Virus record (IMG/VR): IMGVR_UViG_3300020312_000001 | Length of the DNA stretch: 20,000 nt | DNA from: an uncultured virus (IMG/VR IMGVR_UViG_3300020312_000001) | Lineage: Duplodnaviria; Heunggongvirae; Uroviricota; Caudoviricetes; Crassvirales | Strand: one strand, 5' to 3' | Part shown: positions 4,647 to 9,866 of the stretch, in pieces | Position numbering within the stretch: position 1 is the stretch's first letter | How the letters are laid out: every line of letters begins with the position of its first letter | Position numbers and translations under genes: made by a program | Notes under the pieces: generated by a model | What the model saw: only the letters and a program-made list of their open reading frames with translations | What the model was told of the DNA's origin: nothing | Database searches by the model: none

Positions 4647-4964
4647 ATGTCAATACATAAAGTAATATCAAATACGGTAGCACAAACACTGGTAGAAAAA
4701 AATACAGCAGTTTTTTTTAAAGGCAGAATTGGTGGTGTTAATAAAATAACAATGACAAACGTTCACGCTAGCGCAGAACCAGTTATGCATTTATTTATAC
4801 AAAACCCAGATGTTAGTCCTGTTGAGACGTACACGATAGCTAAAACAAAAATACCTGTGAACACAACTTTAGTTTTAAGTGATAATGTTAGTTTTGATGG
4901 TACCAAGTATAGTTTAAAAGTTCAAGCAGATGGCACAGTTGATTGCCATGTAATAGTAAAATAA
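4647..4964 (+). CDS. Hypothetical beta-rich protein, possibly structural
   Basis: 105-aa ORF tightly packed in the operon; the stop overlaps the next start (TAATG). Confidence 0.6.
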   Translation: MSIHKVISNTVAQTLVEKNTAVFFKGRIGGVNKITMTNVHASAEPVMHLFIQNPDVSPVETYTIAKTKIPVNTTLVLSDNVSFDGTKYSLKVQADGTVDCHVIVK

Positions 4965-5461
4965 TGAAATTAGAGGTAATTAGAATAAGTAGTGGGTCTG
5001 ATAGTACGAATGGTGTATTATTAGAACTAGATAGATTAGCTTCAAATCCTCACGGAGAAGGATTTAGATGTAAAAGAGAGTTTTTAGCTTACACGCTAGA
5101 AGACGAGCAAAGAGATGAAAAAGTATATGGAGAAACAAGAATACCAAATGGAACTTACAAGTTGGCTCTCAGAAAAACCGGAGGGTATCATCAAAAGTAT
5201 AGTAAGCGTTTTCCAGACATTCATATTGGGATGCTTCACGTTACTAATGTGCCTGGTTTTGAGTATATTCTTATACATTGCGGTAATACCGATGAGCATA
5301 CAGCTGGTTGTCTCCTCGTTGGCGACTCCCAAGAAAACAACCAAATCACGAAGGACGGTTTTATAGGAAAATCGACTCAAGCATATAAAAGAATTTATCC
5401 ACGAATAGCAGAAGCTATTGAATGTGGGGAAGAAGTAACAATAACATATAAGACAATTTAA
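4964..5461 (+). CDS. DUF5675-family protein (L,D-transpeptidase-like H...GC motif; candidate peptidoglycan-active enzyme)
   Basis: YTLED, ETRIPNGTY, VPGFEYILIHCGNTDEHTAGCLLVG. Start placed at ATG 4964 (TAATG overlap) rather than 4943. Confidence 0.8.
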   Translation: MKLEVIRISSGSDSTNGVLLELDRLASNPHGEGFRCKREFLAYTLEDEQRDEKVYGETRIPNGTYKLALRKTGGYHQKYSKRFPDIHIGMLHVTNVPGFEYILIHCGNTDEHTAGCLLVGDSQENNQITKDGFIGKSTQAYKRIYPRIAEAIECGEEVTITYKTI

Positions 5462-5463
5462 TT

Positions 5464-5871
5464 ATGGCAGGATTTAAACTACCAAAAGATCTAGAGGTAA
5501 TAGCAAACGAACACGGCTTAAGCAAAGGTGAGGTTGAACAGTTTGCAAATAAACACAATGTAACTGGTTTAACCAGAGGTGGAGGCGCCCCAACAAAAGC
5601 TTCTAGCCCTGATGATATGATGGCACAAGCTTACGCTAGTAACACAGCTGTTACATCAGATAGAAGATTTTATGCTGATAAAAAAGACGCAGCGGCTGAT
5701 AGGAAGGAAAGAAAAATACATGGCGAAGGGGGTTTGATGGACAAGCTTCATGCAGCAGAACCAGGATCTGGTAGAGCTAAGAGATTAGAAAATAGAATAG
5801 CTAGAAAACAAGGTGCTATTGATAGAAAAAGAAAAAAAGCAAAAAACATAAGAACAGGACCACATTATTAA
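5464..5871 (+). CDS. Basic hypothetical protein (MAGFKLPK...)
   Basis: 135-aa ORF with a Lys/Arg-rich C-terminus, in operon. Confidence 0.65.
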   Translation: MAGFKLPKDLEVIANEHGLSKGEVEQFANKHNVTGLTRGGGAPTKASSPDDMMAQAYASNTAVTSDRRFYADKKDAAADRKERKIHGEGGLMDKLHAAEPGSGRAKRLENRIARKQGAIDRKRKKAKNIRTGPHY

Positions 5872-6085: not shown

Positions 6086-7141
6086 ATGAAAAATATATTT
6101 ATATTACTGCTTTTATCTATCAGTGTTATAGGTAATGCACAAATAAAAGACTTTTTTAAATACTCAACGTTTTATACTTCAATGACAATGGGTACGTCTT
6201 TTATAGAAGATGAAGATTATATTGCTGTAAATAAAGGATACGAAGACGTTACTGAAGTTAATCCTTATGATTATAATTTAACGATCGGGTTGAGGAAAAT
6301 CGCCCGTATGGATTATGAGTATAAGGTTAAGACGTGGTATTACGGAACTGAAGATGGAGTAAGTGATAACGTAACAATAGGTAACGCTATTGGTTGGGAG
6401 TATTTACTTAACTATTCTTTTATTAGAGAGCGTGGAGAAAAATTTAATAATCAAAATTTTTGGTTAAGATACTTGGGTAATAGTTGTGTTACTAAATTGC
6501 AATATACAGATAACCAAAGGGTTGATTTAAGATTTGGATCTTTTGATACTAGGTTTAGGTTAACTAAGGGCAATTGGGACTTCACTTTAGGGGCTGTAGC
6601 TAGAATACATCCCGTATATGGTGTAACACCAATAGATGATTTTTGGGTACCAGGAGAAAACACGTTTCAAGATTTAGCTGAAGACTTTGGGTATGCAGCG
6701 CAACCTTGGATTCAAGGATTTTATATCGACCAGAATTGGTACGATGTTAGTGGTGGAGATTCCGTACTTATCGCTACCTCAAACGACGAGTTTTTCCACC
6801 ACTATTTCGGAGACGCAGTTGCTAGATTTAATGAGCGTGAACTTGAGAAATTAGGTTTACAAAAAGAACTAAGCGCTGTTGTCGGTGTGGCCTACTATAA
6901 GTACACACCTAAATTATGGCTACATATTTGGGCTAACTGCTTACCTTTACATTATGGTTTAGATGAGTATTCATTTGAATATGGAGAGGAAAAATACGAT
7001 AATATAGAGTGGGATGCTGGTATTGTATTTGGCTCAAGGATTACTAAGTCACTTGGGATGTTTATTGAGGGAACTCATATGAAGTACTGGGACAAACCAG
7101 TATATGAAGTGAAGTTTGGTTTTAACTATTTAATATTTTAA
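6086..7141 (+). CDS. Exported protein, probable outer-membrane beta-barrel
   Basis: Sec signal MKNIFILLLLSISVIGNA|Q; many aromatic-rich alternating strands; C-terminal strand YEVKFGFNYLIF ending in Phe (BAM beta-signal-like). Confidence 0.7.
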   Translation: MKNIFILLLLSISVIGNAQIKDFFKYSTFYTSMTMGTSFIEDEDYIAVNKGYEDVTEVNPYDYNLTIGLRKIARMDYEYKVKTWYYGTEDGVSDNVTIGNAIGWEYLLNYSFIRERGEKFNNQNFWLRYLGNSCVTKLQYTDNQRVDLRFGSFDTRFRLTKGNWDFTLGAVARIHPVYGVTPIDDFWVPGENTFQDLAEDFGYAAQPWIQGFYIDQNWYDVSGGDSVLIATSNDEFFHHYFGDAVARFNERELEKLGLQKELSAVVGVAYYKYTPKLWLHIWANCLPLHYGLDEYSFEYGEEKYDNIEWDAGIVFGSRITKSLGMFIEGTHMKYWDKPVYEVKFGFNYLIF

Positions 7142-7143
7142 TT

Positions 7144-7524
7144 ATGCCGTTTAAAATGAGAGGCTTTACGCCATATAAATTAACAGACGAAGATGAGAAT
7201 ACATCTGGAATACAAGTAGACTCTAAAGACAAAGATAAAGAGTTTACAAAAGAAAACTTACCTTATTATGATGAAGTATCTGCCGTTCAAGTGGGTGATG
7301 ATGGAGGTAAGTTTGTTCACACTATAACAGATGATGAATATTACGACCCCAATGAACCTAATTTTGTGGGCGATTTTCAACCAGGTATAAAAAGAGATAC
7401 TATACATGTTCAAGAAAGATACCCTGAGGGCCATTTAATAGATGAAACGGAATGGGAAGAAGGCGAAGCTTTAAAGAACGCTGAAATAGAAGATAAAGAG
7501 TTTAGAGATAAAATAAAAGAATAA
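7144..7524 (+). CDS. Acidic hypothetical protein with MPFKMRGFTPYK N-terminal motif
   Basis: 126 aa, D/E-rich; N-terminus resembles that of 8207..8737. Confidence 0.65.
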   Translation: MPFKMRGFTPYKLTDEDENTSGIQVDSKDKDKEFTKENLPYYDEVSAVQVGDDGGKFVHTITDDEYYDPNEPNFVGDFQPGIKRDTIHVQERYPEGHLIDETEWEEGEALKNAEIEDKEFRDKIKE

Positions 7525-8204
7525 TGAAAAAATATATTATAATACTATTTGCGTTTATTGGCTCGTTCGTTAATGCGCAAGGATACGACTTTCAACAGTT
7601 ATGTTTAAACTGTGCAGAACAAAATGGTTTTTATTGTGGAGATGATCCAGCAAACTGGACGCAGTATTCACCAGAGGGGTGTGTGCCAAATGGTGCTGGT
7701 GGATTAGAATACTTAAATGATGGATGGGAAGATTGCGTAGATGGCTCAGATGAGAATGGAGCTGTACCAACCACAGCTGCGGATTGCGGTCCAGTTGGTC
7801 CTGGTCCCTGTGATACTGTTTTTGTTGAGATACCAATTATACAATATGAATATATATTTGACACAATCGTTGAATATGAGACCGTTGTTGAATACGACAC
7901 AATCGTTGAGACTGAATACGTATATAACGTTGATACGGTTTATGCTGACGTCTTAGATACAATGTTTATTGATGTTATTGAGTATGTTGAGATATTCGTT
8001 GTAGACACTGTAATAGAAATACAATATGAAGAAATTGTAGAATATATCGATTGTGATTCAGGTTTACCTTGTAATTCAAGCATTATGGAAATAGTGGATA
8101 AATCAAAACAAAACTCTGTAATATATAATATTAAAGGGCAAGCAATTTTAACAAGAGAAGGATTGTACATAGAGAACGGAAAAATTTATTATAAAACTAA
8201 ATAG
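7524..8204 (+). CDS. Exported protein with LDL-receptor class A-like module, DT-V/I repeats and T9SS CTD-like C-terminus
   Basis: Signal MKKYIIILFAFIGSFVNA|Q; FYC...GCVP...DGWEDCVDGSDE; repeated DTV/DTI; C-terminal VIYNIKGQ...GLYIENGKIYYK. Confidence 0.7.
   Translation: MKKYIIILFAFIGSFVNAQGYDFQQLCLNCAEQNGFYCGDDPANWTQYSPEGCVPNGAGGLEYLNDGWEDCVDGSDENGAVPTTAADCGPVGPGPCDTVFVEIPIIQYEYIFDTIVEYETVVEYDTIVETEYVYNVDTVYADVLDTMFIDVIEYVEIFVVDTVIEIQYEEIVEYIDCDSGLPCNSSIMEIVDKSKQNSVIYNIKGQAILTREGLYIENGKIYYKTK
7860..7909 (+). repeat. Direct repeat GACACAATCGTTGA (7860-7873, 7896-7909) within an 18-nt periodic coding repeat
   Basis: Encodes DTIVEY/ETVVEY/DTIVET. Confidence 0.8.
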
Positions 8205-8206
8205 TT

Positions 8207-8737
8207 ATGGCATTCAAAATGAAGGGTTTTAGCCCATTTACAAAGAAAACAGGAAATCCTGATTTAGAACAAGGATTAGGTAATGATGAGGATATGAGAG
8301 AATATCTGGAAAGAAAAGAAAAAGAAAAAGCTGGCGCGGCTAAAACACCACCGCCGCGTGAAAAGGAAGAGTTCAAAGAGCCAGAGGTAGAGGAGAATCC
8401 TGAAGAAGAAACTAAACCTAAAAGCTCAAGATGGGAAGAAAGAGCTGATGTGGAAGAAAAAACTAAAGATGAGGAAGATGATGATTTACCTTTTAAAATG
8501 AGCGTGTCGTTTAGTAGTCCATTTACAAAAACAAAAGATGATCCAGTTGATAAAAATTGGAAAGAAAATCAAAGTATAATGGATGACTTAAAATCTCTTA
8601 AAGAGGATTTAAGGGACGCTAAAACTCCAGAAGAAAAAAGAAAAATTCAAATGGACATAGAGCAAACTCAGAAGATAATCGACAAGGGTTACGAAGAGAG
8701 TAGTCAACTAAACCCTAATAATCCAGATAGAGACTAA
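8207..8737 (+). CDS. Highly charged hypothetical protein with two copies of the FKM...SPFTK motif
   Basis: MAFKMKGFSPFTKK at the N-terminus and PFKMSVSFSSPFTKTK internally (~8489). Confidence 0.7.
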   Translation: MAFKMKGFSPFTKKTGNPDLEQGLGNDEDMREYLERKEKEKAGAAKTPPPREKEEFKEPEVEENPEEETKPKSSRWEERADVEEKTKDEEDDDLPFKMSVSFSSPFTKTKDDPVDKNWKENQSIMDDLKSLKEDLRDAKTPEEKRKIQMDIEQTQKIIDKGYEESSQLNPNNPDRD

Positions 8738-9081
8738 TGGCAAAAGAATTATCAGAAGATAGTAAGTTTAATATAAGTATTAAAACTTTAATCAGTATAG
8801 TTGTAGCTGTTGCTACTGTTATATCAGCTTATTTTGGTTTAATGAGCACTATTAATTCTAAGTTTGGAGAACTAGAACTCAAAGTTAATGAAGCTTTAGA
8901 ATTACCAAAGCCTGGAACAGGTATATATACAATTGATATGGGTGATCCAGCGGCTACTAATACTTGGCCTCCAACTAGAATGGAGTTTAATATGAAAGAT
9001 CAAATGGCTCGTAATCAAATAGACATGTTGATTAAAGAGATAGAGGAAATTAATGAAGAAATTAAACTATTAAGAAAATGA
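8737..9081 (+). CDS. Single-pass membrane protein with coiled-coil segments
   Basis: TM segment TLISIVVAVATVISAYFGLM; C-terminal heptads IDMLIKEIEEINEEIKLL. Confidence 0.7.
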   Translation: MAKELSEDSKFNISIKTLISIVVAVATVISAYFGLMSTINSKFGELELKVNEALELPKPGTGIYTIDMGDPAATNTWPPTRMEFNMKDQMARNQIDMLIKEIEEINEEIKLLRK

Positions 9082-9476
9082 TAAAACAAATAGATATATC
9101 AAACTATCTCTACGTGTTAATAATGCTACTTGCTTTTGGTTGCGGAACAGCTATAGGGCAAGAGTTTATAAATGGTGATTTTGAAGATCGCATAGCTAAA
9201 GATGTTGTGGCTGTAGAGTTTTGGGCTGACTGGAACTCTGCTAATCAATTTAATGACTTAGCTAAATTAAAAGAGTGTGAAAAATATAGATTAGATATTA
9301 TGGCGAATTCTGACACTCAAGCCAAGTATAACGTATCTGCTATACCCACTGTTATTATATTTGATAATGGTGTAGAAAAAGAAAGGTTTAACGCTAATAT
9401 TATGTTTCAATTAGAAGCTGATAAAAAAACTATACAGAATTCTATTGACACAATAATACTAAATAAATTTCAATAA
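9078..9476 (+). CDS. Exported thioredoxin-fold protein lacking the CxxC active site
   Basis: Hydrophobic N-terminus; VAVEFWADWNSAN in place of VDFWAxWCGPC; KYNVSAIPTVIIFDNGVEKERF cis-Pro region. Confidence 0.8.
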   Translation: MIKQIDISNYLYVLIMLLAFGCGTAIGQEFINGDFEDRIAKDVVAVEFWADWNSANQFNDLAKLKECEKYRLDIMANSDTQAKYNVSAIPTVIIFDNGVEKERFNANIMFQLEADKKTIQNSIDTIILNKFQ

Positions 9477-9655: not shown

Positions 9656-9688
9656 AAAAAAGGGAGCCGAAGCTCCCTTTATTATTTT
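9654..9688. terminator. Bidirectional intrinsic terminator
   Basis: Hairpin AAAGGGAGC-CGAA-GCTCCCTTT (9659-9680) with an A-run on the left and a T-rich run on the right, between convergent operons. Confidence 0.9.
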
Positions 9689-9866
9689 AACTATTTTTTA
9701 TAGTCTGAATTTGTTTCCTCACATTCTGAGCAGCTTCCTTAATTGTCTGCATACTCTTTCTAGCTCTAGTTCCAGCTGATTTATTTCCACCCATAAACTT
9801 TTCTATTTCCTCGTGAGCGCTGTGCATTTCATCTTGCATAACGTCTAATAATTCTTCTAAATTCAT
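9687..9866 (-). CDS. Histone H1-like (Hc1-family) nucleoid protein, 59 aa
   Basis: Hand translation MNLEELLDVMQDEMHSAHEEIEKFMGGNKSAGTRARKSMQTIKEAAQNVRKQIQTIKNS; GNKxAGTRARK is the Hc1-family signature. Confidence 0.8.
   Translation of the reverse strand: MNLEELLDVMQDEMHSAHEEIEKFMGGNKSAGTRARKSMQTIKEAAQNVRKQIQTIKNS

Follow-up and report, generated by a model that had tools for sequence, protein, structure and literature searches.

The window examined here, a stretch of 20,000 nucleotides (nt) from an uncultured virus assigned to the Crassvirales (IMG/VR record IMGVR_UViG_3300020312_000001), carries on its plus strand an open reading frame (ORF) at 7524..8204 that starts with ATG and encodes a 226-amino acid protein, here called P0001 (the end coordinate takes in the stop codon). 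Its translation and the alignments of its homologues identify P0001 as an exported mosaic protein, composed of a signal peptide, a head that resembles the class A repeats of the low-density lipoprotein receptor (LDLa repeats), an acidic stalk, and a short C-terminal tail. On balance, and with modest confidence, we consider P0001 to be a phage copy of a host-type cell-surface protein, displayed by means of a short version of the C-terminal sorting domain (CTD) of T9SS, the type IX secretion system.

The ORF is a genuine conserved gene, far beyond a chance frame. Of 1495 candidates from a word-indexed protein search, 1401 were homologous at E≤0.01; many of these come from marine surveys, on contigs as long as ~70 kb. 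On viral contigs, 213 of 229 candidate stretches encode a relative of P0001. We kept 80 of these 213 loci; the counts of neighboring genes given below cover those 80, and the counts of cysteines and of the tail pattern cover 81 proteins, namely the one in the window and those of the 80 related loci. The 81 proteins are between 204 and 308 amino acids in length; all have exactly nine cysteines after the signal peptide, and 78 retain the tail pattern. In an alignment of 25 sequences, almost all of the length variation falls in the stalk, and invariant amino acids occur in both the head (N65, D66, W68, E69, D70, C71, D73, D76, and E77) and the tail (Y201, G205, Y215, E217, and G219). No match to the region or to the protein was found by blastn or tblastn in a phage reference collection of 50,697 records. 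P0001 opens with MKKYIIILFAFIGSFVNAQ, and its C-terminus reads IYNIKGQ...GLYIENGKIYYKTK. The features quoted in an initial annotation of this DNA, namely FYC (residues 36–38), GCVP (52–55), LNDGWEDCVDGSDE (64–77), a stalk of DT repeats, IYNIKGQ (200–206), and GLYIENGKIYYK (213–224), were all located in P0001 and are conserved.

The signal peptide (residues 1–18; 7524..7577, plus strand), as read from the sequence, consists of MKK, a hydrophobic core, and VNA. It is of the signal peptidase I type, ending VNA|Q, and has no lipobox. Gln19, the amino acid that follows, is invariant in all 25 aligned homologues, and cleavage probably occurs just before it, consistent with the ‘Q-rule’ of Bacteroidetes signal peptides (PMC5837995, PMC10653852, in the text available from these papers). 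Phage proteins that obey the Q-rule have been noted in Porphyromonas phages, according to the accessible text of PMC10367356.

A profile of the family, compared with 1.84 billion representative sequences, had 154 matches at E≤0.001, and these split by module. The head (profile positions ~25–90) recurs inside large cellular proteins. The end of the stalk together with the tail (profile positions ~145–227) was found at the very C-terminus of other proteins and nowhere else.

The head of P0001, delimited by hidden Markov model (HMM) and profile comparison, spans residues 25–88 (7596..7787, plus strand). It starts with a CxxC, continues with FYCGDDxxNWTxYSPxGCVP and a calcium cage, and ends in a displaced last cysteine, C88. 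The core of the calcium cage (residues 63–77, YLNDGWEDCVDGSDE; 7710..7754, plus strand) was defined from the alignment and from a profile search of the PDB. It has the acidic arrangement D-x3-D-x5-D-E after an aromatic amino acid, with Y63, D66, D70, D76, and E77 present and the four acidic amino acids invariant in 25 of 25 sequences. A profile built from 17 head sequences matched 87 PDB sequences at E≤1. The best 60 of these 87 all belong to proteins containing LDLa repeats or the closely related complement-type repeats, and the matches listed are led by LRP2 (2.6e-66), followed by VLDLR and LDLR. Single LDLa repeats match as well (e.g., 2knx_A, 2.4e-5).

The alignment between the head and LDLa repeats spans GCVP..DG..DC.DGSDE..C. 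P0001 thus shares with PF00057 the half that forms the calcium cage (GC[VI]P..[WY]..DG..DC.D.SDE), including all four acidic positions. LDLa repeats have nothing that corresponds to the first half of the module (C..C..GGFYCGDDxxNWTxYSP). It serves as a conserved insert of 14 residues (GDDxxNWTxYSPxG) that separates the second cysteine from the third, such that the module is ~64 residues in length as compared with ~40 for an LDLa repeat. P0001 also departs from the six-cysteine spacing of canonical LDLa repeats (C1–C3, C2–C5, C4–C6, ~40 residues). P0001 itself scores 13.4 bits against PF00057 (E 0.095, residues 66–78 only), below the gathering cut-off of 24.1, and the PF00057 check proposed in the initial annotation thus fails on the protein itself. 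The homologous modules of P0165, P0220, and P0261 do pass the cut-off (26.1, 30.4, and 26.1 bits, respectively).

The cysteine that precedes DG in LDLa repeats (C4) had been described as replaced by asparagine in P0001. This is correct for N65, and the amino acid is asparagine in 80 of the 81 proteins and alanine in the remaining one. Two arrangements of cysteines are evident among 17 aligned head modules. In seven, the fourth cysteine is present along with a single starting cysteine, and in five of these seven the last cysteine comes close after DE. In the other ten, which include the phage module, C4 is N, A, or G, and an extra cysteine precedes the first one by three (once two) residues; the last cysteine in modules of this type shifts to ...GAVPTxxxC, ~8 residues further than in LDLa repeats. 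The state of C4 and the arrangement of the other cysteines covary in all 17 modules. We infer that a disulfide joining the added first cysteine to the displaced last one, C27–C88 in P0001, has taken the place of C4–C6.

LDLa repeats had been taken to be mostly eukaryotic, a view that needs correction in that marine bacterial proteins commonly contain LDLa-like modules of this very subtype. Among the carriers of the head module that were scanned, seven end in a PF18962 domain (P0149, P0165, P0209, P0218, P0220, P0227, and P0239), and two clusters of head carriers, one from Flavobacteriales and one from Marinimicrobia, are named ‘T9SS type A sorting domain-containing protein.’ The N-type module occurs in Flavobacteriales and Bacteroidota proteins (P0209 and P0135), which argues that the phage head is of host type rather than eukaryotic. 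What stands of the LDLa assignment, as judged from the PDB profile matches and from the relatives that pass PF00057, is that the sequence of the head supports its classification as a divergent bacterial variant of the LDLa repeat.

The stalk (residues 96–176; 7809..8051, plus strand), delimited by alignment and by a count of sequons, is acidic, rich in V, I, E, Y, D, and T, and variable in length among relatives. It is bounded by the cysteine pairs C88/C96 and C177/C183. Six D-T-[VIM] sequons occur in P0001, at residues 97, 113, 125, 137, 145, and 161, and all six are in the stalk. None of 5000 shuffles reached six, either with the mature protein (mean 0.65) or with the stalk (mean 0.43). All 25 aligned homologues have between three and seven such sequons, and in cellular proteins bearing the phage-type tail the DT triplets concentrate in the last 120 residues. 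According to the accessible text of PMC12871550, general O-glycosylation in Bacteroidota uses the sequon D-S/T-A/L/V/I/M/T and acts on noncytoplasmic proteins, and the stalk of P0001 is therefore likely to be O-glycosylated. At the DNA level, an 18-nt repeat is present in 2.8 copies at 7860–7909, within the stalk. A cellular leucine-rich repeat (LRR) protein (locus L084, 178–1689, plus strand) has as its stalk a long and near-perfect array of 14-residue units (DTLYVDNFIYETLW), followed by the same tail; this array indicates that the stalk grows by tandem duplication in cells too. The cysteine pair at the junction of stalk and tail, C177-x5-C183 (CDSGLPC; 8052..8072, plus strand), is conserved in phage and cellular copies.

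The tail (residues 184–226; 8073..8201, plus strand) was characterized by an AlphaFold2 (AF2) model, by profile comparison with hhalign, and by reference to a published account of short CTDs (PMC11969387). It is ~41–49 residues long, depending on the cleavage site, with ~43 residues following C183. Alignment and hhalign identify the segment IYNIKGQ (8121..8141, plus strand), in which Y201 and G205 are invariant, as the equivalent of motif B; the segment GLYI, in which Y215 is invariant, as the equivalent of motif D; and the basic C-terminal strand KIYYKTK as the equivalent of motif E (the latter two at 8160..8201, plus strand). The motif names are those used in the text of PMC11969387. Within the window, only the P0001 frame matches an HMM of the tail. 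The AF2 model of residues 168–226, calculated from a 41-row alignment, has a mean predicted local distance difference test (pLDDT) score of 78.6 and a predicted template modeling (pTM) score of 0.61. It consists of a helix (185–196) and a small sheet of three to four short strands (200–202, 213–217, and 220–224, with a two-residue bridge at 207–208), and not of a seven-stranded 3+4 sandwich. An AF2 model of the whole protein, calculated with 25 close homologues, was unusable (pLDDT 37.5).

The occurrence of the tail in cellular proteins provides the first line of evidence as to its function. It is strictly C-terminal in all 23 cellular carriers whose C-terminus is visible, and none of these 23 proteins carries PF18962 or PF13585 in addition. 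This strict placement, together with the exclusion of canonical CTDs, is the signature of a sorting signal and not of a binding domain. Many of the carriers have a signal peptide of the Bacteroidota type, which is not always visible because several of them are truncated at the N-terminus. Their passengers are varied and include Laminin_G_3, LRR, DUF285, thyroglobulin-1, trypsin, and SprB repeats. The same families of passenger repeats carry either a canonical CTD (P0209) or the phage-type tail (in the L081 protein), as would be expected of sorting signals that can stand in for each other.

The tail was matched in five of 401 sampled Flavobacteriales genomes, four strongly and one weakly, with one match in each. 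These five genomes are 1.0–1.5 Mb in size, and all have SprA and 25–42 matches to PF18962; PorV and PorU are above cut-off in three of the four genomes with strong matches. One carrier is located on a 69-kb contig of a Flavobacteriales metagenome-assembled genome (MAG), near a gamma-glutamyltranspeptidase-like gene, a TonB-like gene, and a gene for an SprB-repeat protein with a canonical CTD. Other carriers adjoin ordinary housekeeping genes. The second of the two loci found by a strict contig pattern, in a Faecousia MAG, was treated as a chance match (41% identity, E 2e-4). In a protein atlas, the named clusters nearest the tail carry PF19910 or PF18962 (0.79 and 0.77), which we take as a lead only.

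The second line of evidence comes from comparison of the tail with known sorting domains. A set of 30 CTDs, one per genome, was drawn from a PF19910 search of 401 Bacteroidia genomes, 70 of which had a match and 43 a match above cut-off. The 41-row tail alignment matched this set in hhalign with a probability of 74.9% (score 27.6, P 2.6e-5), and the tail alone (residues 186–226) with a probability of 81.6% (score 27.3, P 1.1e-5). None of 300 column shuffles reached a score of 27.6 (mean 9.3, sd 2.1, maximum 16.5), and the highest probability among them was 5.3%. The reversed alignment had a probability of 0.2% (score 9.0) and the N-terminal module, which served as a control, 0.1% (score 6.5); a set of canonical CTDs, as positive control, had a probability of 99% (score 90.0). 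The likeness covers 28 columns. In this alignment, IYNxxGQxI is matched to the i.I.d..G..v strand of the CTDs and GxYI to their GiY strand, with a 14-residue deletion between them, such that the tail aligns as a T9SS CTD from which two middle strands have been deleted. As compared with canonical type A CTDs (TIGR04183/PF18962) and DUF6383 (PF19910), then, the tail matches the motif B and motif D strands, and it co-occurs with SprA, PorV, and PorU in carrier genomes. It differs in being ~30 residues shorter, in having neither the first strands of YPNP type nor the two strands in the middle, and in having a predicted fold other than the 3+4 β-sandwich of canonical domains (~70–100 residues).

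A miniature form of the CTD with these properties has been described in Prevotella intermedia (Ye et al. 2025, PMC11969387). According to the accessible text of that paper, 48 short CTDs of 43–55 amino acids occur in this organism, each forming a single three-stranded sheet. They retain motifs B, D, and E, with a gap of 1–6 residues between B and D as compared with 10–17 in long CTDs, and the strands of the sheet correspond to strands 3, 6, and 7 of the latter. Mass spectrometry identified five cleavage sites as well as C-terminal glycosylation, and LRR, protease, and DUF285 passengers are common.

The phage tail resembles these domains, as described in the text of that paper, in several respects. 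It likewise forms the very C-terminus of a signal-peptide protein, and its length is similar (~41–49 amino acids versus 43–55). It has the same order of elements, namely Y..G with a basic amino acid, GxY-I, and a basic last strand, and its gap between motifs B and D is short (six residues between IYNIKGQ and GLYI). The tail is also predicted to form a small single sheet instead of a seven-stranded sandwich, and passengers of the LRR, protease, and DUF285 kinds occur on cellular carriers of the phage-type tail. At the junction, LPC-x-S|[GS]-[IM] weakly recalls the reported cleavage rule of a small amino acid followed by isoleucine. The two differ in that the phage-type tail occurs in marine Flavobacteriales and their phages and not in Bacteroidales, and in that a CxxxxxC pair and a helix of 12 residues come before the phage tail.

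Several results weigh against reading the tail as a sorting domain. None of 25 full-length members of the family matched the NCBIfam T9SS models at E≤10, and none of 13 isolated tails matched PF18962, PF13585, PF19910, TIGR04183, or TIGR04131 in Pfam and NCBIfam at the same threshold; P0001 itself likewise had no match at E≤10 to TIGR04183 or PF18962, the two models by which the initial annotation had proposed to recognize it. Narrower hhalign comparisons gave low probabilities, 14.7% over 14 columns with seven canonical CTDs from carriers of the N-terminal module and 11.2% over 18 columns with 20 canonical CTDs from four genomes that carry the tail; the score of the latter was reached by one of 200 column shuffles. 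Foldseek found no match between the tail model and the PDB at E≤0.001. A search of 48,161 chains with VIA-align found none at Z≥5 and no CTD among the matches listed, the best (Z 4.3) being to an unrelated chain. The helix that precedes the sheet in the model is unlike a typical short CTD as described in the text of PMC11969387. Each carrier genome has a single tail as compared with 25–42 canonical CTDs, and CTDs can be incompatible between species, as stated in the accessible text of PMC11285876. Lastly, the P0001 gene always belongs to a cassette, located downstream of a DUF5675 gene, that also encodes a barrel, a membrane coiled-coil protein, and a dead thioredoxin; this placement would suit a periplasmic or lysis role as well. 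The T9SS assignment thus survives in part: the comparison with 30 CTDs (75–82%, reached by none of 300 shuffles), the strictly C-terminal position on varied cellular passengers, and the precedent of the P. intermedia short CTDs speak for a short-form sorting tail, and the curated HMMs, the narrower comparisons (11–15%), and the fold searches speak against it.

The genes around P0001 bear on these possibilities. The window is phage DNA. Its minus strand encodes a class II ribonucleotide reductase, thymidylate synthase, MazG, a primase/helicase, Erf, an exonuclease, and a sigma factor, and on its plus strand, large fiber-like ORFs and a DUF5675/phrog_1501 gene are followed by a series of genes for envelope-targeted proteins. 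The closest match of the primase/helicase is that of Cellulophaga phage phi10:1 (42% identity over 99% of its length), followed by those of phages of Flavobacterium, Tenacibaculum, and other Bacteroidota.

Upstream of P0001, and upstream of its homologue in all 80 loci, is a gene (6086..7141, plus strand) encoding a 351-amino acid protein with a signal peptide (…GNAQ|IKDFFKY) and the C-terminal end ...FGFNYLIF. The signal peptide and the aromatic C-terminus make this protein a likely outer-membrane β-barrel. Its invariant association with P0001 had escaped the initial annotation. All of its complete homologues end in an aromatic or hydrophobic amino acid, and the clusters nearest to it in the protein atlas are barrel families (0.93, again a lead only). 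It matches no Pfam family at E≤0.001, no NCBIfam family at E≤1, and no PHROG family. A relationship to PorV, to PorV-like barrels, or to PorP was considered and rejected as far as these searches reach: hhalign comparison with PorV and four PorV-like ORFs of the carrier genomes gave probabilities of 0.1–0.3%, and no relative of the barrel was found in the five tail-carrying genomes with a single-protein query. Prediction of a complex between residues 20–351 of the barrel and residues 165–226 of P0001 gave a score of 0.17 against a mark of 0.32 in a run without controls, which argues neither for nor against binding. In Flavobacterium johnsoniae and Porphyromonas gingivalis, T9SS cargo with a type B CTD is paired with an adjoining PorP/SprF barrel. 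The phage arrangement is similar in that the barrel gene is the immediate neighbor of one whose product ends in a sorting-type domain, and different in that the tail has no match to PF13585 or TIGR04131 and the barrel none to Pfam (E≤0.001) or NCBIfam (E≤1).

Downstream of P0001 are a gene for a 114-amino acid protein in which a single membrane helix at the N-terminus is combined with a coiled coil-like stretch at the C-terminus (8737..9081, plus strand; present downstream in 73 of 80 loci) and, overlapping it by 4 nt, a gene for an exported 132-amino acid protein with a thioredoxin fold in which the CxxC is absent (WADWNSANQ; 9078..9476, plus strand; 74 of 80 loci). A lipobox-like LLAFGC is present in the copy of this gene pair in the window and absent from that of locus L002. 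Just upstream of the envelope cassette, at 4943–5461 on the plus strand, is the gene for the DUF5675/phrog_1501 protein (E 2.4e-26), which was matched in 38 of the 80 loci within the flanks covered. The DUF5675 homologue of locus L002 has an S-x-G-C stretch, which we take to recall L,D-transpeptidase-fold enzymes, and the protein is a possible cell-wall hydrolase.

Two further plus-strand ORFs, at 7144–7524 and 8207–8737, flank P0001. They encode small, highly charged, hypervariable proteins that share a near-identical N-terminal tag, MAFKMKGF[ST][PGA]F.. (MPFKMRGFTPYK and MAFKMKGFSPFTKK in the window). By a strict pattern, 35 of the 80 loci carry one to five ORFs with a tag of the MAFKMKGF type. 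A common tag on otherwise unrelated charged proteins is presumably reminiscent of the capsid-targeting sequences of phage internal proteins. In many related loci, the P0001 homologue directly follows the barrel gene, and one DNA contig from the probable source sample joins position 7143 to 7524, omitting the 380-nt MPFKM gene; this join is weak (depth 5, with only 27 letters on the shorter side). Short contigs from an RNA library of the probable source sample match 7560–7723, 5461–5763, and 9004–9159 with zero to two differences; the match to 7560–7723, by a 165-nt contig, is exact. As DNA can be present in such libraries, these matches are a hint only and were not counted as evidence of transcription. 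On the minus strand at 9687–9866, beside the ribonucleotide reductase gene, is a gene for a basic 59-amino acid protein (…KSAGTRARKSMQTIKEAAQNVRKQIQ…) that is conserved on the opposite strand in 31 of the 80 loci; no family was assigned to it.

The arrangement of these genes lends itself to an explanation other than surface display, which we regard as the main alternative although rather unlikely, namely that they form a cassette linked to lysis or envelope remodeling. P0001 would then remain periplasmic or sit on the inner side of the outer membrane, working with the barrel, the coiled-coil protein, and the thioredoxin-fold protein, and its tail would be a binding or oligomerization domain instead of a secretion signal. 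The constancy of the three neighbors across the 80 loci fits this explanation, as do the position of the cassette after the tail fiber-like and DUF5675/phrog_1501 genes and the failure of curated T9SS models to match the tail. The 114-amino acid protein, as read from its sequence, is laid out like an inner-membrane spanin, with an N-terminal helix and a C-terminal coiled coil. P0001 is, however, no outer-membrane spanin of a known kind, as it has no lipobox, and another ORF separates it from the coiled-coil gene, in departure from two-component spanins. A role confined to lysis is also difficult to reconcile with the occurrence of tail and stalk on cellular proteins that have adhesin or enzyme passengers and no barrel, coiled-coil, or thioredoxin neighbors. 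With the query used, no relative of the barrel was found in the five tail-carrying genomes, the alignment between tail and CTDs scores well above shuffles, and lytic activity of the DUF5675 protein was not demonstrated in the results obtained. The two explanations are not mutually exclusive. It is improbable that P0001 is instead a soluble or virion-associated adhesin independent of T9SS, freed from the periplasm at lysis or decorating particles, with a tail that binds carbohydrate or protein and resembles CTD strands by convergence: the location of the gene on the late structural-gene strand after tail fiber-like ORFs, the mere 28 columns of CTD likeness, and the absence of a CTD from the fold searches would agree with this, but the signal peptide with its invariant glutamine, the nine invariant cysteines, and the sequons point to an extracytoplasmic life and not to cytoplasmic assembly, and all 23 cellular carriers have the tail strictly at the C-terminus, to the exclusion of canonical CTDs.

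Returning to surface display through a short CTD, the following route may be envisioned. P0001 would be exported by the Sec pathway and cut by signal peptidase I before Gln19. In the periplasm, its nine cysteines would be oxidized and its DT[IVM] sites O-glycosylated. The 41–49-residue tail, in the role of a ‘short’ T9SS sorting domain, would dock on PorV, and P0001 would cross the SprA translocon, after which PorU would cleave it and attach it to a surface glycan, unless it is released instead. The outcome would be a calcium-dependent ligand-binding head held on a glycosylated stalk at the surface of the infected cell. Judging from these sequence features, the phage probably plants a calcium-binding protein on the surface of the cell it infects. 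As to purpose, we can only guess that P0001 masks a surface receptor or serves as a decoy for it, thereby bringing about superinfection exclusion or keeping progeny off cell debris; other guesses are that it serves in adhesion or that it cooperates with the neighboring phage barrel. The initial annotation had suggested that P0001 may display a ligand-binding module or may jam T9SS or gliding-linked receptors. A more sweeping proposal, which we advance tentatively and hold to be doubtful, is that a very abundant lineage of marine phages of Flavobacteriales uses a minimal tag of ~41 residues to send a glycosylated, calcium-dependent LDLa-like receptor or decoy through the host T9SS, and that this protein, together with a phage barrel, rebuilds the cell surface to control superinfection or the fate of progeny. 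Short CTDs would then be a phylum-wide signal that phages exploit and not a trait peculiar to P. intermedia.

Phage-encoded T9SS cargo has one earlier proposal in print. ‘Cryophage’ (Bellas et al. 2020, PMC7468147), from a cryoconite metagenome, has genes with T9SS type A domains that were interpreted as hijacking host secretion. As far as the accessible text of that paper describes, it resembles the phage studied here in being a metagenomic phage of a Bacteroidota-type host with genes for T9SS sorting domains. However, the sorting domains of Cryophage belong to the canonical type A and are attached to enzymes (an endoglucanase, a GH39 protein, and a PA14 protein) in variable islands, whereas P0001 is the product of a conserved core gene, has a miniature tail along with a binding head, and has a phage barrel gene as its partner. 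The literature covered, which left out most subscription journals, yielded no account of a short CTD from phages or from Flavobacteriales.

P0001 offers a concrete case in which a phage has put together a presumed surface protein out of host parts, and its head documents a bacterial LDLa subtype with what appears to be a rewired disulfide pattern. If the tail works as a short CTD, then miniature T9SS signals exist well beyond one oral species, and a widespread group of marine phages (1401 homologues, 213 viral contigs) carries T9SS cargo as a conserved core gene. The tail would in that case provide a compact tag for export and display in Flavobacteriia, as well as a marker for host prediction that ties uncultured phages to marine Flavobacteriales with small genomes.

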